A DNA stretch of 61,598 nucleotides, filler included. It is 5 parts of 5 records of this genome, joined end to end, with 100 filler letters (N's around TTAATTAATTAA, not from the genome) between each part and the next. Parts side by side here need not be neighbours in the genome. Positions count along the whole stretch, not along the records: positions 41,930 to 52,852 come from DRR378314_30; 4 more parts are not named here. One strand, 5' to 3'. This document shows, one piece after another, positions 37,458 to 57,724 of the stretch (its first letter is position 1; each line of letters starts with the position of its first letter). Both the position numbers and the translations under genes were made by a program. Under the pieces are notes generated by a model, which was not told where the DNA came from, searched no databases, and saw only the letters and a program-made list of their open reading frames with translations.

Positions 37458-38816
37458 CTATTGAATCAATACAAACACAGATTCACGGCCTCTTTGAACG
37501 CCAAGAACAATATTACCTCTTGTGTTTTCGATGATTTTATTCATTTCTCTGATATTTTCTACGCGTTGACGGTTAACCTGCATAATAATGTCACCTTCTT
37601 CTAAGCCAACACGTGCAGCTGGAGAACGAGGATCGACAGATTCAAGCTCAACACCTTTTGCGCCATTTCGCTGGGTTGATTTGAGTGTTGCACCTTGGAA
37701 TGCCGGATGTAATTCATCACCTGAAGCGCTTTGACCAGAAGCACCATCAAGAGTTACGCTCACTGTTTTTACTTTACCGTCACGATAAATCCCCAGTTTC
37801 ACTTTTTTACCTTCGCCTAGCGTAGCAATCTTACTGCGCAGTTCAAGGAATCCGCTGATTTCAGTGCCATCAACGCTAGTAATTACATCACCTGCTTTGA
37901 TACCTGCTTTACTAGCTGCAGAATCATCCATTACTTGCATGACATAGGCCCCTTGCTTAACATCGAGTTTCTGTGCTTTAGCAAGACCAGCATCCAGTGG
38001 GCGTCCAGAAATACCTAAAGATCCTCTTCGGGTTTCACCATGTTCAATTATTTGATCAACCAGGTTTTTCATCATATTAGAAGGAATGGCAAAACCAATG
38101 CCTACATTACCACCCGATGCGCCCAATATGGCGGTATTGATACCAATTAGTTCGCCATTTAAGTTAACAAGTGCGCCACCGGAATTACCTTGATTGATTG
38201 CAGCATCTGTTTGAATGAAATCTTCATAACCTTCAATATTTAAGCCGCTGCGGCCAAGTGCACTAACAATACCCGACGTTACTGTGTGGCTTAAGCCAAA
38301 TGGATTTCCGATTGCGACCGCAAAATCACCAACACGCAATTGATCTGAATTAGCAAGTTTAATTTCGACCAAGTCATCCGCATCGATTTGTAATAAGGCA
38401 ATGTCGGATTCTTTATCACTGCCGATCCGTTTAGCTTCGTATTCACGGCCATCCTCAAGAGTAACAAGCATTTTTTCAGCATCTTGTACCACGTGATTAT
38501 TGGTTACTACATAGCCCTCATCAGCATCAATAATAACGCCTGATCCTAATCCGCTAAATTCACGTTTTTGGCTGCGTGGCTGAGGATTGCCAAAAAAGAA
38601 GTCAAGGGGATCGGCGCGTCTGCGTACTTCTTTAGACCCAGATACTTGAATACTCACAACTCCAGGGGTGATTTGTTCTAGCATTGGGGCTAAAGTTGGT
38701 AATTGTTGACCATTTACTGCAATTGGCATTTTGGCCGTTGAAACTGCAGGGGTTAATAGTAGGCTCGCAGATAGGACAGCTGAGCTGATTAACGATAATT
38801 TCATTTTCATAGTCAA
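37458..38816 (-). CDS. degQ: Periplasmic serine endoprotease DegQ (HtrA family, 2 PDZ)
   Basis: Signal peptide, TNNHVV, DIALL, QTDAAINQGNSGGAL, two PDZ domains; yhcB-degQ-degS synteny. ATG 38810 is an alternative start. Confidence 0.92.
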   Translation of the reverse strand: MTMKMKLSLISSAVLSASLLLTPAVSTAKMPIAVNGQQLPTLAPMLEQITPGVVSIQVSGSKEVRRRADPLDFFFGNPQPRSQKREFSGLGSGVIIDADEGYVVTNNHVVQDAEKMLVTLEDGREYEAKRIGSDKESDIALLQIDADDLVEIKLANSDQLRVGDFAVAIGNPFGLSHTVTSGIVSALGRSGLNIEGYEDFIQTDAAINQGNSGGALVNLNGELIGINTAILGASGGNVGIGFAIPSNMMKNLVDQIIEHGETRRGSLGISGRPLDAGLAKAQKLDVKQGAYVMQVMDDSAASKAGIKAGDVITSVDGTEISGFLELRSKIATLGEGKKVKLGIYRDGKVKTVSVTLDGASGQSASGDELHPAFQGATLKSTQRNGAKGVELESVDPRSPAARVGLEEGDIIMQVNRQRVENIREMNKIIENTRGNIVLGVQRGRESVFVLIQ

Positions 38817-38937
38817 GGTTTACTCCACATCACAGGAAAAGCAAAAACTAAAAAGGCTGCAAATAGCAGCCTCACTAAGGTATAGATATTATATAAAGCT
38901 GTTATATCTAAAGACTATGGGGTCAAAAAAAAGTTCC

Positions 38938-39381
38938 TCAAGATGCTTTTGATTGTTCTGAAACTTTGTTTTCACCAGCAAATAAACCAGATTCACCCGA
39001 GACATAATCAGCGGGTTGAGCATTAGCAGATGAACGGTCGCTTTGGCGCTCTTTTAAGGAGCGCTGAAGTTGTTCTGTGGTTTCTTTTGAGAAAAATGGT
39101 TCAGCAGGGTGCTGCTTTTTATCATTTAATAACAACTTATTGGTTTCATCAACGTGGTTAAGCAATTGATCATAGTTGTCTTTCATTCGATTAACTAATT
39201 TGCCAGTGCTGGCTAAATGGTCGGCAACATCTTGTCTGTATTGCTCCAAAGCGTGCTTCGCTTGTTCAGCTTGTTGTTCAAGCTCGTCTTGCTTAAATTG
39301 TTTTTTTGTAACAAACGCACCAAGAAAAAAAGCTGTTACTGCAACGATAACGGTAATACCAATCCAAGTAATTGTACCCAT
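38938..39381 (-). CDS. yhcB: YhcB/ZapG (DUF1043) membrane-anchored coiled-coil protein
   Basis: TM helix then LEQYRQDVADHLASTGKLVNRMKDNYDQLLNH and QPADY; synteny with zapE and degQ. Confidence 0.88.
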   Translation of the reverse strand: MGTITWIGITVIVAVTAFFLGAFVTKKQFKQDELEQQAEQAKHALEQYRQDVADHLASTGKLVNRMKDNYDQLLNHVDETNKLLLNDKKQHPAEPFFSKETTEQLQRSLKERQSDRSSANAQPADYVSGESGLFAGENKVSEQSKAS

Positions 39382-39562
39382 AAAATCCACCCCTTTGGGA
39401 AATGCAAAAATAACCAATAATAGTTCGCACGATGGATAACTCAATACGTGCTTTGATAACCTGATGTCAGGTTACATAAATCTTACTATGACTAATATAC
39501 CCCGAGTTACGATGCGTGTTAATATGTTGCGTAAATTAAACCGTCTTTTATTGTAACTACCT

Positions 39563-40651
39563 ATGACACCTTGGCAAAAGTACCAACAAGATTTACAGCG
39601 TGACGATTTTGTACATGATGCTGCGCAAGAAAATGCAGTGCGTCATTTACAGCGGCTATACGATGATTTAACGACAGCAAAGCCAGCTGAAAAAAACTGG
39701 TTTGCAAAGCTCTTTAATAAAGATAGCACGCCACCAATAAAAGGACTGTATTTTTGGGGAGGTGTCGGGCGTGGTAAAACCTATTTAGTTGATACTTTTT
39801 ATGAAGCCTTGCCGGGTAAACGAAAAATGCGTGTGCACTTTCATCGTTTTATGCACCGCGTTCATGATGAGCTAAAAAAGTTAAATAATAAGTCGAATCC
39901 ATTAGAAATCGTTGCAGACATATTTAAGGCTGAAACGGATATTATCTGTTTTGACGAATTTTTTGTGCAAGACATCACGGATGCTATGTTGTTAGGTGGT
40001 TTAATGGAGGCGTTATTTGAACGTGGTATTGTTTTAGTCGCTACTTCTAATATCGTGCCTGATGAGCTTTACCGCAATGGGCTTCAGCGTGCACGTTTTT
40101 TACCTGCAATTGCATTGGTTAATGAAAATACTGAAATTGTTAATGTTGATTCGGGTATTGATTATCGCTTACGGACACTTGAGCAAGCTGAAATATTTCA
40201 CAGCCCACTAGATGCACAGGCTGATAAAAACTTGTTTGAATATTTTGATAAGTTATCGCCAGAGCCTGGCACCTTGGATACAGCGATAGAAATTGAAGGG
40301 CGGATGATTAAAACGCGTAAAGTATCGGATTGTATCGTCATGTTTGATTTTCCTGAACTATGTGAAACGGCCCGTAGCCAAGTGGACTATATGGAAATAA
40401 GCCGTTTGTATAACACGGTTATCTTATCAAACGTAAAACAGCTTGGACAAACTAACGACGATGCTGCGCGCCGCTTTATTGCATTAGTGGATGAGTTTTA
40501 TGAGCGTAATGTGACATTAATCATCTCTGCTGAAAAACCAATCACTGAACTTTACACTCAAGGGAACCTAAACTTTGAGTTCAAACGTTGTATTAGTCGA
40601 TTACAAGAAATGCAGTCACTGGAGTATCTTGCAAGAGAGCATTTAGCTTAA
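39563..40651 (+). CDS. zapE: Cell division ATPase ZapE (AFG1 family)
   Basis: KGLYFWGGVGRGKT, CFDEFFV, LYRNGLQRARFLP, RCISRLQEMQS. Confidence 0.95.
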   Translation: MTPWQKYQQDLQRDDFVHDAAQENAVRHLQRLYDDLTTAKPAEKNWFAKLFNKDSTPPIKGLYFWGGVGRGKTYLVDTFYEALPGKRKMRVHFHRFMHRVHDELKKLNNKSNPLEIVADIFKAETDIICFDEFFVQDITDAMLLGGLMEALFERGIVLVATSNIVPDELYRNGLQRARFLPAIALVNENTEIVNVDSGIDYRLRTLEQAEIFHSPLDAQADKNLFEYFDKLSPEPGTLDTAIEIEGRMIKTRKVSDCIVMFDFPELCETARSQVDYMEISRLYNTVILSNVKQLGQTNDDAARRFIALVDEFYERNVTLIISAEKPITELYTQGNLNFEFKRCISRLQEMQSLEYLAREHLA

Positions 40652-40716
40652 TTAAACAGAGCACTTAAATTTCTTGCGGAAAAAACAAGCGCCAGGTAGC
40701 AATGTGGTTTAAGTGC

Positions 40717-40882
40717 TGGTATACTCCCGCGTCTGCCACGTTGCGTTCTATTGCCTTCATTAGCTTAGCCTCTTTTGAATGGCGCAAAAGTCTTAAACTC
40801 GAAGGGGTTGGAGCAAACATTTAGAGCGGTAATTAATAATAATTACCTGTGGTTTTAATTGAAAAACATTGGATTTTTATAA
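40717..40882 (+). promoter_or_regulatory. rplM-rpsI promoter and 5' leader (L13 autoregulatory leader region)
   Basis: Extended -10 TGgTATACT (40717-40725), GC-rich discriminator CCCGCG, and CCACGTT / TCGAAGGGGT elements recalled from gammaproteobacterial rplM leaders. Confidence 0.6.
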
Positions 40883-41311
40883 ATGAAAACGTTTGTTGCT
40901 AAGCCAGAAACAGTAAAACGTGACTGGTACGTAGTTGACGCTGAAGGTAAAACTTTAGGTCGCATCGCTACTGAAATCGCTCATCGCCTACGCGGTAAGC
41001 ACAAAGCTGAATATACTCCACACGTAGATACTGGTGATTACATCATCGTTATCAACGCGGAGAAAGTTACTGTAACTGGTAACAAATTCAAAGATAAAGT
41101 TTACTACGCTCACTCTGGTTTCCCAGGTGGTCTTAAGTCTACTACTTTTGATAAACTTCAAGCTGCAAAGCCTGAAATGATCATCGAAAAAGCTGTTAAA
41201 GGCATGTTGCCACGTGGTCCTTTAGGCCGCGCTATGTACCGTAAACTTAAAGTTTACGCGGGTACTGAGCACAACCATGCTGCACAACAGCCTCAGGTTC
41301 TAGACATTTAA
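40883..41311 (+). CDS. rplM: 50S ribosomal protein L13
   Basis: [36 protein letters not shown]. Confidence 0.99.
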
Positions 41312-41322
41312 GGAGCACTATC

Positions 41323-41712
41323 ATGGCAAATCAATACTACGGTACAGGTCGTCGTAAAAGTTCAAGTGCTCGCGTATTCTTACGCCCAGGCACTGGTAAC
41401 ATCGTAATCAACAAGCGCTCTTTAGAAGAGTACTTTGGTCGCGAAACAGCACGTATGGTTGTTCGTCAAGCTCTTGAGCTTGTAGATATGACTGAAAAGT
41501 TTGACTTACACATCACTGTTGCAGGTGGTGGTACTACTGGTCAAGCTGGCGCAATCCGTCACGGTATCACTCGTGCACTTATGGAGTTTGACGAGTCACT
41601 ACGTCCACAACTTCGTAAAGCCGGTTTCGTTACTCGTGATGCGCGTAAAGTTGAGCGTAAGAAAGTGGGTCTTAAGAAAGCACGTAAGCGTCCACAGTTC
41701 TCAAAACGTTAA
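41323..41712 (+). CDS. rpsI: 30S ribosomal protein S9
   Basis: [30 protein letters not shown]. Confidence 0.99.
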
Positions 41713-41733
41713 TATTACGTTTTACAGAATTCC

Positions 41734-41760
41734 AAAAACCCAGCTTCGGCTGGGTTTTTT
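41734..41760 (+). terminator. Rho-independent terminator after rpsI
   Basis: AAAAACCCAGC-TTCG-GCTGGGTTTTTT. Confidence 0.95.
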
Positions 41761-41829
41761 GTTTATGGATGAAAAAGTTAGCGATAAACACAGTGTTATC
41801 CTATACACCGTAGCGTGGGTTGAGTATCA

Positions 41830-41929
41830 NNNNNNNNNNNNNNNNNNNNNNNNNNNNNNNNNNNNNNNNNNNNTTAATTAATTAANNNNNNNNNNNNNNN
41901 NNNNNNNNNNNNNNNNNNNNNNNNNNNNN
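41830..41929. other. Artificial contig spacer
   Basis: N44-TTAATTAATTAA-N44. Confidence 0.99.
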
Positions 41930-42679
41930 CAAAGAGAGAAACGCTCGTTCCAACCGAAAACGCAGCAAACGCTACAACCGACATCAACATGTGCGAGATC
42001 GCCCCATGAATCGAACCGAGAAAGCTATGGAATGCTATGTCGGAAAACTTGTATTGAACACCGGAATACTCGTGAATACCACGTGTAACGTGTATCGAAC
42101 AGAGGACAAAGCACCATAGAGGCAGATAATCGTGAAGCCTACTCGCACGCGCGCGACTCCTCCGTTCCTTTGTTTCTTACTTCTCCACGGAAAAGGAAAC
42201 GAGAAACGTGTCGCTACTGAATTTGACATGAGATCGTAATCGACCCTAAAGACAAGCATGACAAGGGAGAGTGTGTCACGGAAGAATGAGCAAAGGAGAA
42301 TCTGCTTCGTAAGAGTGAAACGAAACGGTAGAACGGAGAAAGGGACTTGAGCGCAACAAGGACGATTCCACGAAAATATGCGAATGAACAGACAAAAAAA
42401 AAGCGTGAAAGACCGCTTCGAATCATGTCGTTTTGCCAGAAAGGAAGAGGAAGAACGCGCGTCGAAAAGTGGACTTGGAAGGACCAAATATTGCAAATGA
42501 CAGAACAATTCTCCATGAAGACCTGAAACGAATCGAAAAAAAACATCGAGACCATAAATCCGAAGCATCCGTTTCTTCGCGAAACACTGCTATTTCATAT
42601 ATCTGCACACTTAGCGTACAAGTGATGGATAACGACTGCGGAAACGAGGTCACGAAGTCGCAGGAGCAACACACATCGT

Positions 42680-45600
42680 ACCTGCGCGCTCTTATCGCTG
42701 TATTCTCCGCCGAAAATTACCGCTTTCGCAATCCCTTCCGCCTCTGTGTCGTCTTGCACAAGCGTCATCGAACATCCTGAGCGACAAGGAAGGTTCTTTT
42801 TCTGTTTCACCGACTGCCAGACCGGTGTCCCGCCTGTAACGAACGAACCAAACGAGGACTTGTGAGAAGAGAAGTGTTGTCCGAACAGAAAGGGGAAAAC
42901 GGAGACAATCAAAAGAATCACGAACAGCAATGTCAAAGGAAATAGCACGGTGCAAAACTCGGAAAAAAAGAGAAAGGAATCCGCGGAAAAACAAGCAATC
43001 GAACACCGATACCAGACAACGAGAGACGAACGAGCACTGTATCGACCACGAGCTGAGACGAACGATTATCATTTCTGCGTCGAAAGCAGGACATCCTGTA
43101 ATCTCGCGCGGGATTCCATTTGCATGTACGCGCATTCTTCTCGTCCATATATCACTCAACAATAAGAAAAAAATATGATGTGCGCCTTGGTACAAGAGTT
43201 CATTGGGAGTGATCGTCGTGTACTTCTCACTTGCTTTCCGCGATCCTCCCTCGCGCGTGCGCGACCGCTTTCCGGACGATTTCTCGCATATGCGGATCGA
43301 CGGTGGCAACTCTCGTATGCGCCGTACCTCCTATAGGTACTGTGCACGCGATAAAGTCCCCGCAGTCACGGTCGAAATCGGTTCCTCCGTACGCGACGAT
43401 CGTGCGGAACGATCGCAGCGCAACGCTCCCGAAGAACGCTCTTCCCTTCGGCGCTGCTCGATCGGCGTCGTACCGAAAGATCGACCACGAACCCGAGGAA
43501 AGGTCCAGCACATCAACGCAGGGATCTTTTCTGCCGCCAAAGATCACCACGCGTGACCCAAGGCGAAACGCTAAGGAGAACAGGGAAGAACGGGAGCGAA
43601 AAGAAACACGTGCAGTTCCCATACAGCGTTACCACGAGGCGAATCGAGAGCAACGGTTGTGGGAGAAATCATCAACCATCCGTGTCGTACGGTATCGCAC
43701 GATGTCGTATATTATCGCACGCTGTCGTATAGCGCAGCAGAATCGCGCGTTTCACATTGGAAACGATACGCTGTGAACCATGAGTAGATTTTCCTGTGAA
43801 TAGCGATATGGAAAGATTATAAACCACGTATGCGACCCAGTGTGCTCTTCGCACGAGGTCTCTCACGTTCGTTGCGCTGCGCCGTCGTCCCCATCGCCCA
43901 TTCTCCCAATCACGACACAAATCGCGTTTCACGTCCAATGACGCACTTTCCCTCCCACGCCGTGATTCCCATCACCAGAAGGTCAACGGAACTACCTCTA
44001 CATTATTGCTTACTCGTTCGAATCGGCGATGACGGGTTCGAGCGGTGGACTGTCGCGCAATTCATCTTCTTGTACGTACCACAATGTCCGCTGCGCGATT
44101 CCGCTCCGCTGCTGTGCAATTCCCACTGCAACGCGAGCGCAAAAGGAGAAGAAGAGCATCAAGGAAGCAAAAATCAGAAACCATAAGAAACCGCCACTGA
44201 AACAACAGAAAGGAAGATACAAGTGTCAGCTCCATGAAAGAGAGAGAACGACAGCGACAGAGAGTGAAAGAGAGACTGTAACGGTCCAAGTGAAGTGCAT
44301 GTTCCACTGTACACTGTACACAAATCAGATCGATCACCACAAGAATATGACGCGAATCGTTGGAAGAAAGGAATGAAACCCGATCAGTTCGTATTATAAC
44401 AAGGTGGATGTAACGATATCATGCAGCTTCCGTAAACCAACAGTCCAACGATCCGTTCTCAAGCGATATGCAACCTCTACTTGCCGCGACAAGGACAGAA
44501 AAAAAAACGTATCAAAAAGAAGAAGAAAACACCGGTAGAGCACATATTTACACGTATTCGAGCCACTTACAGCGAGAACTACCAAAAGACGGTCAGAAAC
44601 GGCGAGAACGGAAACTTCAAAGTGCACAAGAGTTTAAACGAATCGTGACAACTCCGTTGTAAAATCCTTGTACGAATAGCTAATTCTTCACCAATAGTGC
44701 AGAAAAAATAGAATCAAATTACACGAAATAAGATTCCACTGATCTCCATTTCCCTTTCAACCTAATCGTTGTCGAGTACGCGAGAAGCGAGAAATCGGTA
44801 CATTCAGTGCATGAAATGTGACAAATACCAGGAAAGGACACTATTGCTCGTTACTCATCTTCTCTCTTGCTCTTTCCGAGACGAAACACTCTTGGAAATG
44901 ATATCGATTCAATTTTCAATAGCAGATAATCGAGACTATTCTCCGTTTCTCTCGTATGTCTTGATGTACCTCGTACGGATTCGTCCAAAGTACGTGACTT
45001 TCTCCAGGAGCTTTTCGCCCTTGACCAGTTTCACGACCGATGATCAAGATCCTGTTCAGTGGAATATCGAACCAAGATTATTGTCAGAGCAGAAATGATT
45101 CTCTTGTTGTCATCAACTTCACGAGAAAGCAGAGAATGTTCATCGAATTCAGTTGATTTCGTTTCCCATCGTTCACAAAAAAAGGTCATCAGTGTCCACG
45201 TCAGAGTAGCAGCAAAAGACGTAGAAGAAGAACACGAAATCGCTTCATGTGCGAGAAAAGAGAGAGTTGAAGGGTATTGAAATCCGATGACAAAAACAAT
45301 AATTCTGAAGAACGACAACGGTCCATAGAATGATTGTGTCGGCGAAGCAACAAAAAAGAGCGACGGGCAGAATAAAAACACTAAAAACTTCAACGCTGCA
45401 ATATCAATATTTTCGACACCAAAAGTCTTGTGGAAAGCGGAAGAACAACTCCAGTGTGAGCGGATCGAGAAAGAAACGTGATAGAGAAGATTGATTTCTC
45501 GCGTATATATACTTCACGCTATTCTTCCGCAACATGATTTCGGTTCAATAGTACCATTGATTGGTGTAGTAGCAAAAGGAAGAACAAACGGTGCGGATTG

Positions 45601-47622
45601 GCGCTCCGATTATAACAATATGATCCTCGTTGACCATAATAATCTTCGTAGTCCCTGACAAAACGTTGTCTTTTTCGTACCCTTTTCGCCCTTCTTCCTG
45701 GATGATTGTAGCTGTGTGTCCAGAGCGAGATCCGCATCCTACGAGACCCAGTGGGAGTATAGTGGTACAACAGGAACACGGAGAAAGAGAAGAACGAATG
45801 AAAAGGGACACAGATACTATGCGGAGTAGAAGAGCGGGAGAGGAATACGAGCGAGAGAAACAAAAGAAGACCGTCGATACCATTGGGCTCCGTGTCGTTT
45901 CTTCGGAATAAAAATTCATACCACGCTTTGTCGCATAACACCTACACGAACTCTTTTTCGTCAAATACTGCGAGTGCTGCGAGCAACGCTCTACATTCCC
46001 CTGCATCACACGTGCTTGGCTGTTCGAGATACAAAGAAGAGACGTATTGGACCTAACAGAAATGAGGAGCGAGTCCTTCCGCAACGAGGGAGCAACGACG
46101 GATTGGAACGACTCTTGATCAGTGCGCAATATTCCGCACACTCACGTCTCCCTTTTACCTGTATACTTGGAAGTCGTTCGGTTTCTGCGCGAGTTCCCTC
46201 GAATTCCTGCTGAAACAGGCGACCATGTCATCGACGCGAGGTCCAGAAGATACACGTCCTCGCTGCAACGGTGACCGCGATATACGCAATCGAGTTTCAG
46301 AAGCACGAAAGGATCGCCCGTCGATCGCACAAGAAGAAAGGGGAACTACAGCGTAGTATTGCTATACTACGCTCTGCTGGGTCTACCTGAGTGTTTCGAC
46401 CTTCCAATATTTGCAAAGCGTGACACCCCTGCTAGCATGTAGCTTGTTCGCGCCGCGCGAGTGTCCTCGGGTGCTCTACGCGCGTGCAGAAGCGCAACGA
46501 GTCTGATTCGTCAAGCAACAAGACGCGTACCGTCGAGCAATACCATCTGTTCCTCCAAATACGAGCACAGAATCGCCGTTTACAGTGGCGGAGTGTCGAC
46601 TAAGACGAGGAGATTCACCTGCAAAAGGCGCGACATGCCGGCGGCGAAGAAGGAGAGCACATAGGTGCGAAAGAAGCACGTGGTGAAACAAGCTCGCCAG
46701 AAACCGGCAACGCTGCTCTTCGCCGCACAGAAGACGGAAAGCACTATGTGATATCTTCACCATCCGAAAAAGAATGCAGATACTGAAATAAATATTTTTG
46801 CTACCATGAAAAACAAGTGTCGCTTTGTGTGCCGGAGAGCCCGGTGCAACGCACTACGAGCCAAACTTGGCGCTCGCGCCGTACGTGGAGCACTGACCGA
46901 GCCACCACCGACCCGCTGCTCGCGCGCAGGCGACGCCACTTTCCTACCACAAGACCACAAAACGCAGCACGAGCCGCAATGTAATACGCTCTTTCGAAAC
47001 GTGCGTCTAACCCTTGCGTTGCGACGCGTCTTGCTCCATAGGCGCCATAGAGGCCGATGTAAAGCGGAAACGTTGACAGACAAGCCGCATCCTACAAACT
47101 ATGCACAAACTCTTGCCTAACACGCGCAACATAAGAGCTCGCCAACACCTTTCAATCCTCCAGAGCACAAGAAGATCATCACATTCCTATTCCTATTCGA
47201 CGAGCATACAAGTGAGAAACGTTTACCCAGAGTCGAAAAGAAAAGCGAGTAGAATCGGAGCCGCACCTTGCGTGCTGCATCGACTCCACGAGAGCGACAA
47301 CGGCGAAAAGCACCAGAGGTCTGCCAACACGTCCGTGTCGGCACTATTGTTCGATTTCTTGGACGCGTACGACTCGCCGCCGTGGATGAACACTTGCCCA
47401 TTATAGCAAAAACTCGCGTGGTGCGAGCGAGGTGGTGGCCCTACGCAAACAAACGAAGGACACGGGTCGCAAAAAAGAAAAGAGGTGAGCACACGCTCGA
47501 ACGCAGCAGCTCTGCAGGGAAGAGCACGTGCCAACGATTCGCTTACCTGCCGTACCAACTTCTTCGAAATCTTTCACTTCCACACCCCGTAAAACTGGTT
47601 GCTTGGCACGATCTCTCGACAT
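42680..47622 (-). CDS. Kelch-repeat protein, many small exons (3' end unresolved)
   Basis: Exon 1 (47622-47547) splices in phase to 47440, giving GTAGPPPRSHHAS..VFIHGG..LADLW..W. Further Kelch pieces: LSRHSAT..VLVFGG, DVYLLDLASMTW, RSGHTAT, VVIFGG..LDLSSGSW, GRAFFGS..VAYGG, AVIFGGE. Confidence 0.8.
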
Positions 47623-48091
47623 GACTGAGAAAAATAATCCAACGACTCCAGTCCGGAGGAATTTCCCGATGAAGCAGACGCCAAACGAAAACGCGAAGAA
47701 TTGGAGCACCGAACTTTCCCTGCGAGTGCACTCCCCGCAGCTCGCGAGCCACCAGCGAGAGCGCTCCGCGCCGCTAACTCACCCTCCCGTTTCGGAAAGA
47801 AGGAGAATTCGCAGAAGCCAAAGAAAAAAGCACTATCTCTTTCTTACTTCAAAAACAAAACGAATGAAAACGAAAACATATGCGCACAGAAGGTCGGAGA
47901 ACAGAGAAGTCTTCCATGCAACGTAAACGCGCCACTCTGAGAGTGTAAACTTTTGCAGTGGAACAAGGTGATCAACAAGAATTTTTGATCGTTGTGCGGT
48001 GGTAAATGGAAACGCACTGGAATGGCTTCGGCCTTTGATCAAGTATTCATATACAATTTTTTACCCTTCAGCGGTAAAGCCATACGGGCTA

Positions 48092-48166
48092 ATCAAACGG
48101 TCATGGGTTCGAATCCCATACCTGTCATTCGGCGGGTTGGCGCAGCGGTAGCGCGTTTGATTCCAG
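48092..48166 (+). tRNA. trnW: Circularly permuted tRNA-Trp(CCA): 3' half 48092-48127, TTC spacer, 5' half 48131-48166
   Basis: Re-ordered halves give a full 72-nt cloverleaf: acceptor GGCGGGT/ACCTGTC + A73, D stem GCGC/GCGC, anticodon stem TTTGA/TCAAA with loop TT-CCA-GA, T arm ATGGG-TTCGAAT-CCCAT. Break at 37/38; T8 terminator downstream. Confidence 0.9.
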
Positions 48167-48173
48167 AATGGGC

Positions 48174-48181
48174 TTTTTTTT
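48174..48181 (+). terminator. RNA polymerase III terminator (T8)
   Basis: T run 7 nt after the tRNA 5' half. Confidence 0.8.
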
Positions 48182-49459
48182 GGCTCTCCAACCCTAAAGA
48201 TTGTAACCTAGAGGGTTCCCGTCACCGCGCATCGTGCAGTAGGGACCTCCGGCGCACGAGATGTGCGAGGCGTTTGCAATCAGCGGGAGTACGCTGGCTC
48301 TCGTGGTTTTTTTATTATTATTATTTCATCCGAAGGATATCTCCGGAGAATATACTTTCAGGACACCTATCATCTACATAGTGAGGGCGAGGGCATCCCG
48401 CGCTACTTCTTACTCGCTGCGAGAAGCGGATGCGCGCCAGCATCCCCTGCCAGAGGCTTTCGAGAGACGGGAGAACCTCTCCAGCGCACGGTAGCATGAG
48501 CCTATTGCTTACACGGAAGCACGCAATCCACTCGGCATGCAACCCGAGGCGCACCAACGCTCGCAGCGGCCGAGAAGGCGGCACTGAAACTGCACACGGA
48601 CATGTGGATAATCATTGCTTTGAGTTCGCGAAGAACGTGGCGGACGAAGGGGAGCGTGCGCTCACTTCGCCAGAACTGCCGCGGATACTTCACGCTCTCG
48701 GACGAAAGCAACAGGAACGTAATTTGTGTGCTTTTTATTGACAAAAGAAGAACAGACGAAATAGCGACACGCTCTCGGGTCACTGGTCTTGCGAGCGGTG
48801 CAAAGCAGCAGCTCCCACACAGCAGCTGCTTGTCAGAGGTACACAGCACCCCGCGAGAATCGAAACGATCCAAGAGAGAGAGAAATCGCTCAAAGTTCCC
48901 GGGAAACGCTGATGCCACAGCAAAAAAAATATAGAAGCAGCTCTTCACATTGCAAGCAGTCTCTGCACCGAGGTAAATCGCACTGGAAGCCAAAGCGGCG
49001 GCGCGCCATCCCGCGAACGCTCGTCCCACGATGATCGGGCGCGGAGGATCAAAACTCGGTGCAACGGAGAGGAAAACATCCAGGCAAACGCGACACGCAC
49101 GCCGCCACAACTGCCATCAAGACCAGAATCTACCCGGGACGACAAGTGGCCGTGCCGTGCCCGTTCACACCAGGGGAAGCATGACCCACCAAGCCGCGTT
49201 CTCCGCGCCAACAACTCGCTTCCACTCACGCGAACCGCGCGAACCGACGCGACGCAAGCGCAGAACAGAACAGAGTTCAAGGCGTCACCTGCTGCACCAC
49301 ACGCACAATGCGCGTAGCAGGGACAAATGGCCTGTCGAAACACGGACTGAGCGCGCTGGCTCCGACCAAGTCATACACCCGCTACGTCAAACGCCATACG
49401 CGCAGATAGGCTGCGCTGACGATGAGAACAGAGGCAGCGTGCCGCCATAGGGTTCCAAT

Positions 49460-52400
49460 TTACCAGTCCTTCTTCGGGACGGCCCAGTCGCATGCGGACT
49501 CGATGCCGAGGTTGTTCGAGCCGCGGACAATGCGGAACCAACCGTTCTCTCCCCACGCGGTTCCCCACGAGTTGCGGCCGATCCAGTACTTCGTCCCATC
49601 GCTGTCGACGCCCCAGCCGACAATGGAGATCTCGTGCATGATCTGCGTCACGCCCGTGGTATCCTTGAAGATGCCGCCGTGGTAGTTCTCGAACTCCTCG
49701 GTGACGGCCATACCGCAGCCCATGGGGCCGCGCGCGTACAGCTCCTTCATCATTGCCGTCTCGCCCGACACGGTGCCGTGCTCTTCGATGAAGTACTTCT
49801 TCGGGTTCTGCACAGCGAAGCAGCCCTTGTCGGGGCTGCAGTTGCGGCAGATGTTGATGTCCGTGCACTGCGTGCCGTTACCCTCGGCACGGTAGTTCGA
49901 GCACGTGTCGTCGGTGATGCCGTTCTGGTAGATCCACTCGTACGCGGCGGTCGGATCACCTCCCCAGCAGCCGTGCGAGTCGCCGCCGGTGACGCAGTAC
50001 ACGAGGACCTGCGCGGCGAGCTTGATCTCCGGGAACGCGCCCTTGCGCATCATCTTGATGCGATCGCTGAGCGCGCTCGTCGTCCCCATGGTCCAGCAGG
50101 ATCCGCAGTAGCGCGGGATGTGCTGGTTCATGTTCAGAGTCACAAGGTTCTGCCCGTTGATGTTGCGCGGGTCGTACGACGCCGGAAGCTCGTCGTCGCG
50201 GATGTAATCCTGCGGCAGTGGCGACTTGATGACACCGCGGCGGACACCTTCGAGCTTCGGGTCGCGGCGCACACCCCAGTTGTTGTAGTCGAAGAACGTG
50301 CCCTTCTTGAACACCTGCGGCGTGTTGCCGTCGTTCACCGACTCGCTCTCCTCAGCAATCAGCGCCTCCTCGACAAGGTCGGCCGTGTTCTCGGACTCGG
50401 CAACCTCCTCGGTCTGCTCGCTCTCAAACGCAACCTCGGCCTCCGACGAAGGCTTCGACAGAGTCGGGACGCCCCAGGAGACGTCGTTCTCAATGCCAAG
50501 GTTGTCGTGGTGCATCTTGATACGGAAGAAGCCGTGCTCGCCCCAGTACGTGCCCCAGCTGTTGCGGCCAACCCAGTACTCGGTACCATCGCCAGCGACG
50601 CCCCAGCCAACAATCGAGATGATGTGGTTCGGGATCGGCACAAGCACAAACTCGGAGAAAATTCCGCCCTTGTACGCCTCGAACTTGTCCGTGACGTGAA
50701 TCGCACCCGCAACCGGGCCACGAGCGTAAATCTCGGCCTTGATCTTATCAGCGCCGTGGACGCTGCCAAACTCGTTGACATACCACATGGTGAAGTTGGT
50801 CACTGCAACGCACTTGCCCGGGCTGAAAGACTGCTTCGTCGGCGAGCACGTCTCGCAGATGCCGGTCGGCTTGCACTCGCCGTCCACAGCTTCGTAGTTC
50901 TGGCAAGTCTCATCGGGGAGGCCCTGCGACCGCATGTACTCGTACACGCCGCCGGGGTTGCCGCCGCCACAGCTGCCGCCGCCGCCGCAGTTCAGCAGGA
51001 CCTGCGGAGCGAGGTTCACTTCAGGGTAGGCACCCTTGCGCTGGATCGAAATACGATCCGAGAGCGCGCTCGTTGTTCCAAAGGCCCAGCAAGACCCGCA
51101 GTACTGCGGAATGTGCTGGTTGCGCGGCACGGTAAGATACTCCGTGTCGGTCCACGAGAAGTTTGCCGGAAGCGATGAAACATCGAGCACTTCGTGCGGG
51201 CGCTTCGACAGGACACGCTCGCCCTTGGGGAAGTGCGTCGGCCCGTGGAAGCACGCTTGGTGCTGCACTCGACATGCATCGGGAAAGGACGAGTGGAAGT
51301 CAGCAAAAAGACGGGATCAGAGACGATAGTTTCCAAGATTTGTAACGCTGCACGACGCCACGAGGACCGCACGGCGACGCCCACAGCGATCGGAGCAAAC
51401 TCCGCAGAGGCGCTCGGAAAAAAGGGGAAAAAAGCATCAACTCCCACAAACACAGGATGTAGGGCAGACTAAACTAAACGAGTTCAGAATTCCAAAGCAT
51501 GTGCGCTACAGTAATCTCACACACACGAATAGTACGGCAATATGCAGAAAGCTGAAAAAGTGGGGAATAATCCCGACACGGCGCGAAACGGTGCCTGCCA
51601 AACGAGCGTGGTGCCTGACTGCCGCCCAGAATGGCATGGTATGGTAATCCCTAACCCTAATAAAAAGCTTGTTTCTTGCATTGATTTGACTGATCCACAT
51701 TCGCGGAAGGGTCCTCTAATGCACCCATTACAATCGTTTTTGGTGTGACAGGATCGCGGTGTCAGACGCCGCACGCAGCTGTCGTGGCGAGACGACGGTC
51801 CGCGTGCGCAAGTGCCAGAGCGCGCGCCGCAGCGGCCACCACGGCCTTGCTGACTGACACCGTCCAACCAAGCGAAAGGCCCGCGCAGAGCCCTCGGCAC
51901 CCGCCGCACGTGCTAAATAGCGTCACCAACCCCTGCCAAGAACGATGCACCACTGCAGATCCAGCAGACGAGGAGCTAAATCTACAGCAATAAAATAATA
52001 CAAAGGCCGCGTATGAATGCAGGCGTCTACGCAGCGGTGCAGACTCGCCGTCCGGGAGCGCCGCCGCGCGCCGTGTAGGCGCCATGCGGTAGCCCAGGGG
52101 CCCCCAAACAAGCAAGCGCGCGCCCGCGTTGCGCCAAGGCCTCGCACAGGGCGTCACACGCAGCGCCAGCGCAGAGAAACCGCTGAGCCCGTTCAAAGCA
52201 ACCCCTGCTACGTATATCATTCTACCCTTTTCCTCAGTTGACATGAACTATTCAGAGAACCAGTACTCGAATACGTTGGATTCTCTCTGCAGCAAAAACG
52301 GAAGGCGAGTAACGGCTGACACCGCGCACCAGAGCAACGCGCGCGTGCGTGCGTGCGCGCATGGGAACCACGCCGGCTCGACGACCTAACGCACGCGTGC

Positions 52401-52540
52401 GCACAACGGCGCGACACGACGACGCTTGAAAGCGCTCTCAACCTCTTTTATCAACGCCCATAGAGCAGCTACATAAAGCTTGTCCTTACCTTGGCATTTG
52501 CCAGAAGAGCGAGGGCGAGAATCACAAGAGTGACCTTCAT
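49460..52540 (-). CDS. Tandem double-domain cathepsin Z/X-like cysteine protease (C1A), about 617 aa
   Basis: Signal-peptide exon 52540-52490 (MKVTLVILALALLANAK, GTAAGG donor) is in phase with exon 51262-49460. Two papain domains, each with NQHIPxYCGSCW, catalytic His (NHIIS / MHEIS) and RNSWG. Strong GC3 bias. Confidence 0.93.
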
Positions 52541-52852
52541 CGCGGAAACAAAACGAGTGCTTCGGGAAAGTTGAGATCTCACGTGCGAGCGCGCGAGAAT
52601 ATGAGTAGCTTTCACCCTTGGCGAGCAAAGAGAAAGCTATCAGCGTCGACGCCCGCGAGTACAGTGCAGGACAAAAACGTCGCCAATCGAGGGTCTGTCA
52701 AAGAGATTGAGGCGGAGTCCTGTGGTGGAAAAGGAAGTGTCTCGAATCTTCGCAACACTGCCCAACCCCAGCCAGCCGTAACGCGCACACAGCAAAGCGA
52801 ACTTGCCCTGTTGCGGCGCTCAACGAACATCATTGGAGCCCCTCGGCCCAGA

Positions 52853-52952
52853 NNNNNNNNNNNNNNNNNNNNNNNNNNNNNNNNNNNNNNNNNNNNTTAA
52901 TTAATTAANNNNNNNNNNNNNNNNNNNNNNNNNNNNNNNNNNNNNNNNNNNN
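52853..52952. other. Artificial contig spacer
   Basis: N44-TTAATTAATTAA-N44. Confidence 0.99.
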
Positions 52953-53377
52953 TCTGAGCCGACTAATGACGTGATATCACGTTCGTCACCTGCTCCTCAG
53001 AGAATTGTCATGGATGATAACCGTCTAAACACTTTGGATCGTAGCACCAGCATTGGATTGATCCTTTCCCGCTGGCTGGCCTGAGTCGTAGTAAGCGCGA
53101 TGGTATAGCGTCGATCAGGGTAGCTTGGAAAATAGGCTATCAACTTCCTCTCGCTTCAGCATTCTGGTGCCTGAGGGTCAGAATCAATCAATGCATCGTT
53201 GATAGAAGAGCCACAGTTAATGACCCGCACCGGTGTGTTCATAACAACCTTTGTAAAGTAGTTAGCGTAGAAGAGAGGTAGACCTTGGTATAATATGCTG
53301 CGCTGCATGATGTTGGCGCGGTATTGCGTTAGCCTTCACCATAAAGTGTCGTCATCCTGCTGTTTAATCTACTTATC

Positions 53378-54316
53378 GTGAGCCGTTTTGTTCCTATGCC
53401 TTCTATCTCGTTACCAACGCTACTGCCTCGCCACCTAGCCATTTTTCTGATGATGTCGGTGGCTACCATGTTCGCAGCTAACCACGTTTCCGCGCGGCTT
53501 GCGTTTGATAATGGTACTGGCTTACTTCTTGCGGTATTGATGCGTTCTGGCGTGGCGTGTTTGATTTTACTGACGTTGGTCGTGGTTCAAAAAAAGCGGC
53601 TTTGGCTACCGCCCGGCACATGGCCATGGCAGTTGGCAGTAGGGCTTCTGATTGCCATTCAAAGCGTGAGCCTTTATTCAGCGGTTGCACGTTTGCCGGT
53701 GGTCATTGCGCTGTTACTGGTTAACACCTTTCCTATTCAATTAGCGCTGTTAAGTTGGGCGCTGGGCGGACCTCGGCCTTCGCTGCGCAGTTGCCTGATT
53801 ATGGGCACTATTTTGATTGGGCTGCTCGTGGTACTCGATATACCGAGTTGGTTCGCGGATGCCAATGCCATGGGGCCTGAGTGGTTGGTTGGTATTGGGT
53901 TTGGGTTAAGTGCCGCTTTTGCGTTTGCTTGCGCGCTTTGGGTCACTGAGCATCGATTGGCAGGGGTTGGCAGCACCTTACGTAGCCTGCTGACCATGCA
54001 AACGGTGTTTATTGTCATGATTGTTGGTGGGGTGCTGGGTGTGGTTCCTGGAGGAATGAGCTTGCCAGATAACAGCGCAGGCTGGACAGGACTAGCCTTG
54101 TTAGCCTTGCTATACGGCAGTGCTTTTTCCCTACTGTTTATTTTTGTGCCACGCCTGGACATGGCGCGCAATGCTCCGGTGATGAACTTCGAGCCAGTAG
54201 CGTCGTTATTGCTTGGTTATATCGTTCTAGGTCAGATGCTAAGCCCAAGCCAACTCGTAGGTGGGGCAGTGGTCGTTGGTGGCATTGTTGTGCTCAGCCT
54301 TTCTAAAGGTAGGTAA
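53378..54316 (+). CDS. EamA/DMT family transporter
   Basis: About 10 TM segments in two repeats; NTFPI and MNFEPVASLLLGYIVLGQ motifs. ATG 53396 is an alternative start. Confidence 0.9.
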   Translation: MSRFVPMPSISLPTLLPRHLAIFLMMSVATMFAANHVSARLAFDNGTGLLLAVLMRSGVACLILLTLVVVQKKRLWLPPGTWPWQLAVGLLIAIQSVSLYSAVARLPVVIALLLVNTFPIQLALLSWALGGPRPSLRSCLIMGTILIGLLVVLDIPSWFADANAMGPEWLVGIGFGLSAAFAFACALWVTEHRLAGVGSTLRSLLTMQTVFIVMIVGGVLGVVPGGMSLPDNSAGWTGLALLALLYGSAFSLLFIFVPRLDMARNAPVMNFEPVASLLLGYIVLGQMLSPSQLVGGAVVVGGIVVLSLSKGR

Positions 54317-54433
54317 ACAGGAGAGGAAAAAGGAAACTGTGTGCAAGTTGGGCCGGCAGATTGCGTTCTCCTAAAGTATAAGCCAAAATTAAAAAGTGTA
54401 AGGAAACGCTGTTTTTTAACTGAGGTTTAACTT

Positions 54434-54943
54434 ATGAAGATGACCGTATTATCACTCACCTCTGCCGCTCTTTTAGTTGGTGCGGGTACGTTCGCGGCAT
54501 CGGCTCAAGCGCAACAATCCTTCCAGTACCCACAAGGATATGTGGGCGGCGATGCCATGTTTTGGAGCTTGAACCCAGAAAGAGGCTCTTCACGCGATGA
54601 CGTTGGTTTGCGTCTCCGTGGTGGGGCACAGTTCAATGATTATTTCGCCTTAGAAGGTCATTTGGGCACGGGTGGTTCAGATCGTGGCGCCGAGCTAAAT
54701 CATGTTGCGGGTGCTTATGCGAAAGGTATCGTACCCATTGCTCCAGAAGTGCGTTTGTATGGCTTGGCGGGCTTCACAGAGGTTGATATTAATAGCGACC
54801 GTGAAACCGGTTTCTCCTACGGTGCCGGTGCGGAAATGGATATCAGTTCCAATGTATCGGTAGGCGCTGACTACATGCGCTACCTGGATAAATCTGCCTA
54901 TGATTTTGATGCTGCCAGTGTAGGCCTAAAGTACCGGTTTTAA
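54434..54943 (+). CDS. Outer membrane beta-barrel (porin family, OmpA-like transmembrane domain) protein
   Basis: Signal peptide, amphipathic strands, C-terminal VGLKYRF BAM signal. Confidence 0.88.
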   Translation: MKMTVLSLTSAALLVGAGTFAASAQAQQSFQYPQGYVGGDAMFWSLNPERGSSRDDVGLRLRGGAQFNDYFALEGHLGTGGSDRGAELNHVAGAYAKGIVPIAPEVRLYGLAGFTEVDINSDRETGFSYGAGAEMDISSNVSVGADYMRYLDKSAYDFDAASVGLKYRF

Positions 54944-54981
54944 GGCAACAGCCAATACTTGATTAATCTACCAGTTGAAAC

Positions 54982-55021
54982 AAAGCCCTATCGCTAACCC
55001 TAGCGATAGGGCTTTTTTTTT
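54982..55021 (+). terminator. Rho-independent terminator
   Basis: AAAGCCCTATCGCTA-ACCC-TAGCGATAGGGC followed by T9. Confidence 0.93.
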
Positions 55022-55143
55022 GCGCTAAGCAAAGGGGCTTGCTAGCGAATGGTAAGGGTATCTGGTTAGCATAATAAGTTGATGTATCAAGGGAAAGTCA
55101 TTGGAGTGACTTTATTGAGCGCTTGTTCATAATGAAAATATTG

Positions 55144-55155
55144 TTAGCGTGCTAA
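55144..55155. promoter_or_regulatory. Putative SlyA/MarR operator TTAGCGTGCTAA
   Basis: Palindrome matching the SlyA consensus TTAGCAAGCTAA at 10/12, 85 bp upstream of the HlyD-family gene. Confidence 0.5.
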
Positions 55156-55240
55156 TGGTTTGTTAGACTAAAGTATTCCACCTAATAATATCTCCAAGCG
55201 GTGACATAGTCGCTTTGGTGCTCGTCAATGAGAAATCTCA

Positions 55241-56302
55241 ATGTCCCCTGATCAAAAATTTACTCGCTGGGTGAAAATAGCCCTGTCCGTATTTCTATTG
55301 CTGTTCGTTTACTTCTTAATGGCCGACAGTTTTATGCCCATGACACCTGAGGCGCGGGCAATGCGCCCCGTCACCAGTATTGCTCCTGAGCTAAGCGGCC
55401 CTGTGCAAGAAGTCGTGGTGAGCGACCATCAGCCGGTAACCCAGGGTGATGTGCTATTTCGCTTAGACCCATCGCCCTTTCAAATCGCTCACTCCCAAGC
55501 CCAATTAAACCGGGAGCAAGCGGAGCAAGAAAACGCTCGCTTAAATGCAGAGCTAGCGGCTGCCAGGGCATCACTTGCCTCGGCACAGGCTACTTTCGAT
55601 GAGCGCAGCGGTGAGCGCCGTCGTGCTGAGGCGCTTCTTGGGCGTCAGGGGATTTCTCGCCAGCAATACGAACAGCAGGTCGCGGCCGAACATACCGCAC
55701 AGGCGGCTGTGGCATCTGCCCAGGCACAGATTGAAAGTTTAGAGGTACAGTTAGGAGAAGAGGGCGACGATAACTTACGCCTTCGCCAAGCGAATAATGC
55801 CCTTGAAAAAGCTGAGCTGGATTTAGCCCATACGGTGGTAAAAGCGCCAGAGTCCGGTGTGGTCGCTAATCTTCAGCTACAGCCTGGCCATTATGTGCAG
55901 GCGGGGCAGCCTGCAGTGGCGCTGGTCGCGAGCACGGTAGAGGTCGTGGCTGATTTTCGTGAAAAGAGCCTGCGCCATGTGGTGCTTGGCGATGAAGCAA
56001 AAGTGGTCTTCGATGCGTTGCCTGGACAAATTTTTGAAGGGCATGTCAGTGCCTTTGATGCCGGCACCCGCGCAGGCCAGCAGGCAGTGGATGGTCAACT
56101 TGTGGATATTCCTGCTTCAGATCGTTGGATACGAGATGCGCAACGTGCGCGTATTCATGTGGCGTTAGATACGCCGTTGACTGAACTACCCCCGAGTGGT
56201 GCGCGGGCAACGGTGCAACTAGTGCCGGGCGAACATGCAATGGCTAAGCCGTTTGCGTGGTTGCAGGCGCACCTGATTAGTTGGCTGCACTATGTTTATT
56301 AA
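55241..56302 (+). CDS. HlyD family efflux membrane fusion protein
   Basis: TM anchor, lipoyl halves (IAPELSGPV..GDVLFRLDP; VKAPESGVVANL), alpha-hairpin. Confidence 0.92.
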   Translation: MSPDQKFTRWVKIALSVFLLLFVYFLMADSFMPMTPEARAMRPVTSIAPELSGPVQEVVVSDHQPVTQGDVLFRLDPSPFQIAHSQAQLNREQAEQENARLNAELAAARASLASAQATFDERSGERRRAEALLGRQGISRQQYEQQVAAEHTAQAAVASAQAQIESLEVQLGEEGDDNLRLRQANNALEKAELDLAHTVVKAPESGVVANLQLQPGHYVQAGQPAVALVASTVEVVADFREKSLRHVVLGDEAKVVFDALPGQIFEGHVSAFDAGTRAGQQAVDGQLVDIPASDRWIRDAQRARIHVALDTPLTELPPSGARATVQLVPGEHAMAKPFAWLQAHLISWLHYVY

Positions 56303-57374
56303 AGCGGCTATTAAAACGTTTATTAAAAAGACGCCTGTAGTCGCTGTTAATAAGCCAGCGCTCTCTCAAAATGGCCTGCGCCAGTGCCTGCGGGTAGCGG
56401 GAGGCGGTTCGCTGGGGTTTATTATTAGCCAATTGATGGGCTGGAATTATGGCGTTTTTTTTACCGTTTTCCCGATGTTCTTGTTGGGTATGGTGCCCAT
56501 TTTAAATAGCAGCATCATTCGCCAGTTTTTGGCGAACGTTAGCTTGAATGCTTTGGAAGTCAGCTTGGTGGTGGGGCTTCTAAAGCATATGCCGGTAGTG
56601 ATGACGCTGGTCGTACTAGGTCTGTTTTTGCTGCGCTTCAATCTAATGGCAAAAGGCCCGCTGTTTCTGTTTGGCGCGAATGGTGTGTTGACGCTAAGCA
56701 TATTGCTGCACTTTGCTAGCTACCCTGGTGTTGATTTAAGCGATCTCTTGGCGAGTAATATTATGGCTAGCCTGCTGGCGGTATTTATCGCCATGTTGAT
56801 GCATACGCTATTTCCCGATGTTGAACCTCGCCAGCTACCACCGCGTGGTGCAAAGCCTGCAGCCCAAATTCGCCATGAAACATTGATGGGCGGCATTACG
56901 GCCACACTCTCGTTCGTAGTGTTCCAAATGTTTGACCTCAGAGATTCGCTGTCAGCGCAAATGGCCACCATTCTGATTCTGTTTGCTTTAGGTTATTCCG
57001 GCGCTCGAGTGTCGGCAGGTAAGCGAGCCATCGGCACGCTACTAGGCTGCAATCTGGCGCTGGCAATGCAGCTATTGCTTTACACCCAAAGCCATCATTT
57101 TTTGCTGGTGATTTTGCTCTATTGGCTTGGACTAATGCTGTTTGCTAGAGAACATATTTTGGAAGGTGGCGGCTCAGGCATTGGCTTTGGAGGGCTGACA
57201 ACGTTGGGTATTCTCTTTGGCCAATCGTTAGGCCCGCAGCAAGACCTTGTTTATAGTGCGCTTTATCGGTTCTCTTCGATGAGCGTTGCGCTCGTGGGCA
57301 CCTTGTTGGTAATGGCTTGTTTGCACTGTTTGCTAAATAGTTGGCAGCCAACGCGCCTGCCTAAAAGTAATTGA
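56292..57374 (+). CDS. DUF2955-type (FUSC-like) inner membrane protein
   Basis: LRQCLRVAGG..WNYGVFFTVFPMFLLG, multi-TM, overlaps the HlyD gene; start uncertain. Confidence 0.75.
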   Translation: MFIKAAIKTFIKKTPVVAVNKPALSQNGLRQCLRVAGGGSLGFIISQLMGWNYGVFFTVFPMFLLGMVPILNSSIIRQFLANVSLNALEVSLVVGLLKHMPVVMTLVVLGLFLLRFNLMAKGPLFLFGANGVLTLSILLHFASYPGVDLSDLLASNIMASLLAVFIAMLMHTLFPDVEPRQLPPRGAKPAAQIRHETLMGGITATLSFVVFQMFDLRDSLSAQMATILILFALGYSGARVSAGKRAIGTLLGCNLALAMQLLLYTQSHHFLLVILLYWLGLMLFAREHILEGGGSGIGFGGLTTLGILFGQSLGPQQDLVYSALYRFSSMSVALVGTLLVMACLHCLLNSWQPTRLPKSN

Positions 57375-57480
57375 GGTAACTTTTCTAACAAAGGCTACGC
57401 TAAGGAAGGTGTCGCCATTCGAAGTGAGTATTCACTTAGTGAGCGGCATCATCCCCACTAACGGATTAGAGGTGTTCGTC

Positions 57481-57660
57481 ATGGCAAGTGGCAAAGAAGA
57501 TAAAGTGAAAGGTACTGTCAATAAGGCCGCCGGAAAAGTGAAGGAAGCAGCTGGTAAAGTAACCGGCAGTAGTAAAACAGAAGCTAAGGGTAAAGCCCAA
57601 CAAGTAAAGGGCGAGCTGCAGAAAGGTAAAGGTAAGGCCAAAGAGAAGGCTAAGAAATAG
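57481..57660 (+). CDS. CsbD family general stress protein
   Basis: EDKVKG..KAAGKVKEAAGKVTG..EAKGKAQQVKG, 59 aa, GAGG RBS. Confidence 0.88.
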   Translation: MASGKEDKVKGTVNKAAGKVKEAAGKVTGSSKTEAKGKAQQVKGELQKGKGKAKEKAKK

Positions 57661-57682
57661 CGTCTAGCCAGGGTATTTCAAT

Positions 57683-57715: not shown

Positions 57716-57724
57716 GGTAGTGAC

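Follow-up and report, generated by a model that had tools for sequence, protein, structure and literature searches.

The DNA stretch analysed here (the window, 61,598 bases) carries, on its plus strand, a sequence that is certainly derived from a tRNA-Trp gene and that is permuted in this assembly, since the call obtained after re-ordering its halves, the conserved positions, the negative results in the native order and the specificity of a doubling scan all point the same way. Considering the organization of the locus together with that of its flanks, we think it likely that it is a eukaryotic nuclear gene for tRNA-Trp(CCA), circularly permuted with a type II (37/38) junction, and that its transcript would mature through a circular intermediate. 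To judge from its letters, the permuted tRNA-Trp(CCA) gene is apparently intact. Four N44-TTAATTAATTAA-N44 separators (20167–20266, 31293–31392, 41830–41929 and 52853–52952) divide the window, which therefore consists of five draft-assembly contigs placed end to end and not of one molecule; the locus sits on the fourth contig, 41930–52852. The coordinates of its elements and of the neighbouring genes are collected in Table 1.

Table 1. Features of the tRNA-Trp locus and of the flanking genes, in window positions; X1 is one of the four runs that provided RNA-derived contigs
Feature	Coordinates	Strand	Basis
TATA-like box TATACAA	48050–48056	+	Read from the sequence; leader pairing begins about 26 nt downstream
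Leader	48076–48091	+	Minimum free energy and centroid folds, register test
tRNA-Trp 3′ half, positions 38–73	48092–48127	+	36 nt, extracted by coordinates; ARAGORN on the re-ordered sequence
Intervening TTC	48128–48130	+	Read from the sequence; with A73 closes the acceptor stem as a loop
tRNA-Trp 5′ half, positions 1–37	48131–48166	+	36 nt, extracted by coordinates; ARAGORN on the re-ordered sequence
Trailer	48167–48176	+	Minimum free energy and centroid folds, register test
T8 run	48174–48181	+	Read from the sequence; RNA polymerase III terminator-like, first three T also in the outer helix
Kelch-repeat gene	42218–47913	−	Spliced RNA contigs of run X1, Pfam
Cathepsin X-like gene	~48732–51683 (open reading frame 49463–51316)	−	Pfam, RNA contigs, relatives named cathepsin X or Z

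The permuted order can be read directly at 48092–48166, where the 3′ half lies upstream and TTC separates it from the 5′ half. The 3′ half comprises the 3′ strand of the anticodon stem, the variable loop, the T arm with a perfect B-box-like sequence (GGTTCGAATCC), the 3′ strand of the acceptor stem and the discriminator A73; CCA is not encoded at its end. The 5′ half comprises the 5′ strand of the acceptor stem, the D arm with an A-box-like sequence and the 5′ strand of the anticodon stem, and it ends with the loop bases U32, U33, C34, C35, A36 and G37. The junction falls exactly at 37/38, and joining the two halves restores an anticodon loop of 7 nt.

The halves were rejoined in silico by coordinates and the re-ordered 72-mer was submitted to ARAGORN, which returned tRNA-Trp(cca) with a full cloverleaf. 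All 21 stem pairs of the re-ordered tRNA are standard (19 Watson-Crick and 2 G-U, both G-U pairs being in the acceptor stem), and the invariant or semi-invariant positions that were checked fit in 17 cases out of 17 (U8, A14, R15, G18, G19, A21, U33, R37, Y48, G53, T54, T55, C56, R57, A58, C61 and A73). Furthermore, the tertiary partners 8:14 (U8:A14), 15:48 (G15:C48), 18:55, 19:56 (G19:C56) and 54:58 (T54:A58) can form. The combination of G1-C72 with A73 corresponds to what we take to be the eukaryotic/archaeal type of the Trp identity set.

When the locus is scanned in its native order, ARAGORN finds 0 genes, with or without intron search, and Rfam gives 0 matches at gathering thresholds. 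An ordinary collinear tRNA gene is ruled out by this result and by the behaviour of the collinear tRNA model RF00005, which under permissive thresholds scores 14.6 bits (E = 9.8) for 48131–48224. Specificity was addressed by a scan of the whole window in which each of 50,520 sliding segments was doubled, which makes a permuted gene look like one with an intron. Calls came from segments starting at 47959–48103 (39 Trp-cca calls plus alternative intron placements of the same locus), while the rest of the window yielded one stray "tRNA-Stop" at 59191. No other tRNA was found in the window by ARAGORN, with and without introns, or by the doubling scan.

These results agree with a first-pass annotation of this DNA, which had described the two swapped halves with TTC between them and the break at 37/38, had proposed that re-ordering restores a complete tRNA-Trp(CCA), and had expected ordinary tRNA scans to overlook the gene or to take it for a pseudogene. 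Its coordinates are correct throughout, including those of the paired leader segment (48076–48083), of a GGG further along the leader (48086–48088), of the trailer segment (48168–48176) and of the T8 run.

Leader, trailer and proposed maturation

The minimum free energy (MFE) fold of 48076–48181 shows a permuted cloverleaf with a closed acceptor hairpin and a terminal helix AAAGCC/GGCUUU, which in the centroid fold is lengthened to 8 pairs with one bulged G. The leader strand of this outer helix comprises 48076–48081, and up to 48083 in its longer form; the trailer pairs back to it through 48168–48176, the bulged G of the centroid fold included. The MFE corresponds to z = −1.96, and 7 of 200 shuffles equal it.

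In the canonical register of a bulge-helix-bulge (BHB) motif, the four leader bases ahead of the last two should pair with nucleotides 35–32. Here the central helix has three pairs in register (G48086-C35, G48087-C34 and G48088-U33), the unpaired triplets being A36-G37-A48167 at the 5′ site and U48090-A48091-A38 at the 3′ site, and each predicted cut falls behind the second base of its triplet. The outer helix measures 6–8 bp and is offset by 2 nt. Among 27,718 flank pairs taken at the same spacing as background, 2.6% have the three in-register pairs, 6.9% have an outer helix of 6 bp or more, and 0.16% combine the two features. The leader/trailer motif is a relaxed BHB (hBH-type), not a strict hBHBh′ motif. 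A relaxed motif of this kind, with GGG paired to the anticodon loop, had been drawn in the first-pass annotation, and the register test bears it out, as does the centroid fold, which matches the drawn helix. Leader and trailer resemble the two ends of what was once a hairpin-forming intron, which fits a model in which an intron-containing gene was duplicated in tandem and its outer halves were then lost.

Because the T arm, which is B-box-like, precedes the D arm, which is A-box-like, the two elements stand in the reverse of their usual order in an internal promoter. The TATACAA box, directly followed by a T6 run (48057–48062), is a candidate upstream promoter for RNA polymerase III (pol III); TATA-like words have a start frequency of about 0.6% per 10-nt span on the three eukaryotic contigs. 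At the other end, the T8 run begins seven bases past G37, and the eukaryotic contigs contain 14 runs of at least 8 T in 84,230 strand-bases, which corresponds to about 0.2% per 12-nt span. No promoter-like or T-run signal is present inside the 3-nt linker TTC. The permuted tRNA genes of Cyanidioschyzon merolae and of green algae are described as having TATA-like or AT-rich boxes upstream and T stretches downstream (PMC3978253, section 5).

The following pathway can be proposed by analogy with the permuted genes of algae (PMC3978253, sections 6 and 8). Pol III would start near 48076, steered by the upstream TATA-like box, and would produce a transcript in the order leader, 3′ half, UUC, 5′ half and trailer, stopping in the T8 run. 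This transcript is predicted to fold into a tRNA body whose acceptor stem is capped by a 4-nt loop (A73 plus UUC) and whose anticodon stem runs on into the relaxed BHB formed by leader and trailer. The tRNA splicing endonuclease would then cut behind G37 and ahead of A38; given that the mature domain is intact in the permuted pre-tRNA, a eukaryotic endonuclease could use a ruler mechanism. Ligation of G37 to A38 by tRNA ligase would yield a 75-nt circle, RNase P and tRNase Z (or exonucleases) would open the acceptor loop and drop the UUC, and addition of CCA would finally give a normal tRNA-Trp.

Several points weigh against the interpretation of the locus as a permuted gene that is matured in this way. 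Regarding the cleavage motif, the fourth central pair is a mismatch (U32/C48089), two surplus leader bases (48084–48085) lie opposite the 5′ cleavage bulge, and C48089, at position −3, is unable to form the yeast-type anticodon-intron pair with U32. The unconstrained leader-trailer duplex has an energy of −7.4 kcal/mol, which is equalled by 14% of the background pairs and is not significant, and the MFE fold favours a longer anticodon stem (A38-U32 and A48091-U33) over the bulges. Moreover, terminator and outer helix are not independent signals, because 3 of the 6 outer pairs use the T run, and all the feature tests were picked after the locus had been seen. The linker is also unusual: those published span 1–74 nt, and the 3 nt found here lie below the shortest eukaryotic one in Table 1 of PMC3978253 (5 nt, nucleomorph of Bigelowiella natans).

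Further points of this kind come from comparisons with other sequences. The tRNA contig was compared with RNA contigs from four runs (X1 to X4), whose libraries were polyA/oligo-dT or unspecified; no RNA contig from these runs covers the tRNA-Trp locus, and as they cover its neighbouring genes only, they are silent on tRNA-Trp expression. An orthologue scan of metagenomes with a loose T-arm...D-arm pattern gave 0 permuted genes among the at least 119 loci listed, all of which are ordinary bacterial tRNA genes lying side by side, mostly Cys followed by Val, the best acceptor complementarity among the matches listed being 5/7. Likewise, a Trp-specific pattern had 0 matches in the viral and in the prokaryotic collections.

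Relic, mimic or assembly artefact

The same sequence could be a non-functional permuted relic that is not processed into a working tRNA. It would have been left behind either when an intron-containing tRNA-Trp gene was duplicated in tandem and the outer halves were lost, or when a circular or permuted pre-tRNA was reverse-transcribed. All permuted tRNA genes are proposed to have arisen along such lines (PMC3978253, section 10), and a relic would agree with the imperfect BHB, with the unremarkable energy of the unconstrained pairing, with the lack of an RNA contig over the locus in the four runs, and with the lack, in the collections searched, of an orthologue to show purifying selection. On the other hand, there are 0 mismatches in the 21 stem pairs and the 17 conserved nucleotides are all intact, whereas a T8 terminator, a TATA-like box and an in-register leader-trailer fold as rare as 0.16% of background are not expected of a decaying relic or of a random retro-copy. 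Nor are decaying outer halves present nearby: alignment detected no remnants of them within 600 nt on either side, with scores of 7–11 against a shuffle mean of 7.9 and a maximum of 14. Since the tRNA body is flawless and the flanks are coherent, we regard a relic as improbable.

Alternatively, the permuted order might persist in a stable, tRNA-like product of pol III, which would act as a Y RNA-like or YrlA-like mimic, its acceptor loop closed and its termini paired, and not as a tRNA precursor. Y RNAs are in general laid out with paired 5′ and 3′ ends and a U tail behind them. The sole sizeable Rfam match of the locus is indeed YrlA (RF02553), with 40.5 bits and E = 3e-07 for 48075–48180 over model positions 1–114. 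YrlA RNAs have been described as resembling circularly permuted tRNAs, and they have in common with the present locus an end-paired terminal stem, a T arm, a closed acceptor-like hairpin and a D arm (bioRxiv 10.1101/312249); this shared topology accounts for the sub-threshold match. However, the score is well short of the gathering score of 69, so that YrlA is absent at gathering thresholds, and in the alignment most of the model that links terminal stem and tRNA-like body is deleted or mismatched. YrlA, a bacterial RNA that binds Ro60, is described without an anticodon loop (bioRxiv 10.1101/312249), whereas the tRNA contig is a spliced eukaryotic one and all seven loop nucleotides (including U33, CCA and R37) are found here, split exactly at 37/38, so that the full loop can be reconstituted. 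No TROVE/Ro60 gene was found among the scanned open reading frames (ORFs), in scans that covered only part of one window. Taken together, a mimic of this type appears very improbable. YrlA matches below threshold might serve, in eukaryotic or archaeal DNA, as a practical flag for tRNA genes permuted in the anticodon loop.

Also very improbable, and the least probable of the three, is an assembly artefact, in which ordinary tRNA-Trp copies were collapsed or chimerically joined: the draft assembly is fragmented, with bacterial contigs mixed in, and the join itself is not covered by independent sequence, but the flanks are unique, with no 5′ half upstream of A38 and no 3′ half downstream of G37, and form a coherent transcription unit and fold, a collapse of tandem genes would require a 3-nt spacer without terminator, and RNA-derived contigs confirm the neighbouring genes up to 47913 and from ~48732.

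Neighbouring genes and host

The tRNA-Trp locus lies within the 818-nt gap between a Kelch-repeat gene and a cathepsin X-like gene, both encoded on the minus strand. RNA-derived contigs of run X1 follow the Kelch-repeat gene from 42218 to 47913 and skip nine intervals, each of them GT...AG. These introns measure 106–844 nt and 6 of the 9 start with GTAC; the joined exons form a single open frame of 494 codons, and single exons match Kelch-repeat families in Pfam. Because nine GT-AG introns are spliced out of this gene in the RNA contigs, contig 41930–52852 is nuclear eukaryotic. Beside the RNA joint 42520-to-42680, an alternative joint 42244-to-42681 is seen, so that the Kelch gene may be alternatively spliced, or may skip an exon, near its 3′ end.

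The ORF of the cathepsin X-like gene has 618 codons and contains two papain-family (C1) stretches according to Pfam; a language-model search finds its residues 1–370 to be C1-peptidase-like as well. Homologues of 570–600 amino acids are found in many eukaryotes, which speaks for a conserved tandem-domain architecture. In the region between this gene and the tRNA-Trp locus, a T7 run followed by (ATT)n is located at 48304–48322, about 125 nt past the tRNA terminator. On the minus strand this is an A-rich AATAA-type stretch, and the cathepsin RNA contigs stop farther off, at ~48732. A second small RNA downstream was looked for in 48182–48311, the segment ending in the T7 run, and no excess structure was detected there (z = −0.49).

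Runs X2–X4 are marine or aquatic metatranscriptomes. Their contigs match the cathepsin region only, mostly at 90–95% likeness, and 4 of the 67 pieces of run X2 match it at 99% likeness or more. As to habitat, this indicates no more than the presence of relatives in marine or aquatic samples.

The placement of the host was approached through the cathepsin domain, for which 536 significant matches were obtained, the best (about 60–63% identity) belonging to mixed eukaryotes. In a quick maximum likelihood (ML) tree of 35 rows, built on this single gene with its paralogues, the query forms a long branch (0.92) within an unresolved fork, outside the green-plant clade (support 99) and outside a supported choanoflagellate clade. 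As the tree reflects one gene with paralogues, an unsampled green or red alga could still be the host. Since permuted tRNAs have so far been an algal trait, an algal host becomes more likely through the tRNA-Trp finding itself. Among 30 further ORFs of the eukaryotic contigs that were scanned with Pfam, no phylogenetic marker was seen.

As for the other contigs, 31393–41829 (~41% GC) has unbroken ORFs for an ABC ATPase, MlaE, an EPSP-synthase-fold enzyme, two DegP-type proteases and an AFG1-like ATPase, and 52953–61598 (~50% GC) has unbroken ORFs for EamA, HlyD-type, DUF2955/FUSC and SLC13-type Na-sulfate symporter proteins. Both look bacterial and are probably contaminants or associates in the assembly. 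Neighbourhood across the four separators is biologically meaningless. The first-pass annotation had seen in the host a bacterivorous heterotrophic protist, an idea that probably arose from the mixed contigs of the window. This claim is unsupported: the bacterial DNA lies on separate contigs joined by the N-containing linkers, and, being unlinked to the tRNA contig, it says nothing about how the host feeds. Elsewhere in the window, a 1380-codon open frame on the minus strand (27020–31159), in a stretch of ~67% GC, encodes a CLASP N-terminal (TOG) domain at residues 79–286; a word-based search with this CLASP-like ORF gave 1 match, useless for placement.

Comparison with known permuted tRNAs

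In 2014, 34 permuted tRNA genes were counted in six algae and one archaeon (Soma 2014, PMC3978253). The isotypes in Table 1 of that paper include Leu, Gln, Thr, Gly, iMet, Ala, Arg, Lys, Ser, Cys, Asn and Tyr, and Trp is absent from it. Later additions are seven permuted genes in Bathycoccus and one in the prasinovirus BpV1 (PMC3673656), two Ser genes in Amorphochlora, and permuted genes, of kinds left unspecified, in Auxenochlorella (PMC12633428). A 2026 review still describes the eukaryotic permuted tRNAs as confined to algae, and in the sources cited here the published eukaryotic cases all trace to red or green algal genomes. Relative to the 34-gene table of 2014, Trp is a new isotype for permutation, as the first-pass annotation had suggested it might be, the isotypes of Bathycoccus and Auxenochlorella lying outside this comparison.

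A stronger proposition is that the locus is a working nuclear permuted tRNA gene of a eukaryote that belongs neither to the red or green algal lineages nor to those derived from them by endosymbiosis, and at once the first permuted tRNA-Trp and the bearer of the shortest eukaryotic linker (3 nt); we put this forward tentatively and hold it to be rather doubtful. If it were true, permutation with circular maturation would arise independently wherever a 37/38 intron is found together with a splicing endonuclease-ligase pair and an upstream pol III promoter, and standard tRNA annotation would silently miss essential tRNAs in under-sampled protists. Even without this, a permuted Trp gene from an intron-rich eukaryote placed apart from the sampled green algae would widen the isotype range of permutation, and perhaps its lineage range, and would bear on the model of a "recent, independent origin from intron-containing genes". 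The 3-nt linker would provide a test of the shortest acceptor loop that RNase P and tRNase Z can open. Moreover, if this were the sole Trp(CCA) gene, the genome would seem unable to read UGG, as ARAGORN and Rfam miss the gene. The value of the finding would rise sharply if the host proved to be outside Archaeplastida and if the joined, CCA-tailed product were seen by tRNA-seq.

Among known systems, the permuted tRNA-iMet and tRNA-Tyr of Thermofilum pendens share with the present locus circular permutation and very short linkers (1 and 7 nt), but they are archaeal, have their junction at 59/60, encode CCA and contain additional introns (PMC3218864). [quoted passage not shown]

Type II is the commonest published class; the hallmarks described in print are hBH motifs together with AT-rich or TATA boxes upstream and T stretches downstream (PMC3978253). 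The type II genes of the Mamiellophyceae (Ostreococcus, Micromonas and Bathycoccus) and of the nucleomorphs of B. natans and Amorphochlora have, like the present locus, both halves on one strand with the 3′ half first and the junction at 37/38 (PMC3978253, PMC3673656, PMC4494063), and they further share with it a relaxed hBH leader-trailer motif, AT-rich or TATA-like sequences upstream, a T stretch, the lack of an encoded CCA and a short linker (PMC3978253). The permuted genes tabulated for the green lineage are Ser, Leu, Cys, Arg, Asn and iMet (PMC3978253), as compared with Trp(CCA) here. Finally, in contrast to the Mamiellophyceae and nucleomorph genes, the present one is known from sequence alone, and its host has intron-rich genes and falls outside the green-plant clade in the cathepsin tree.

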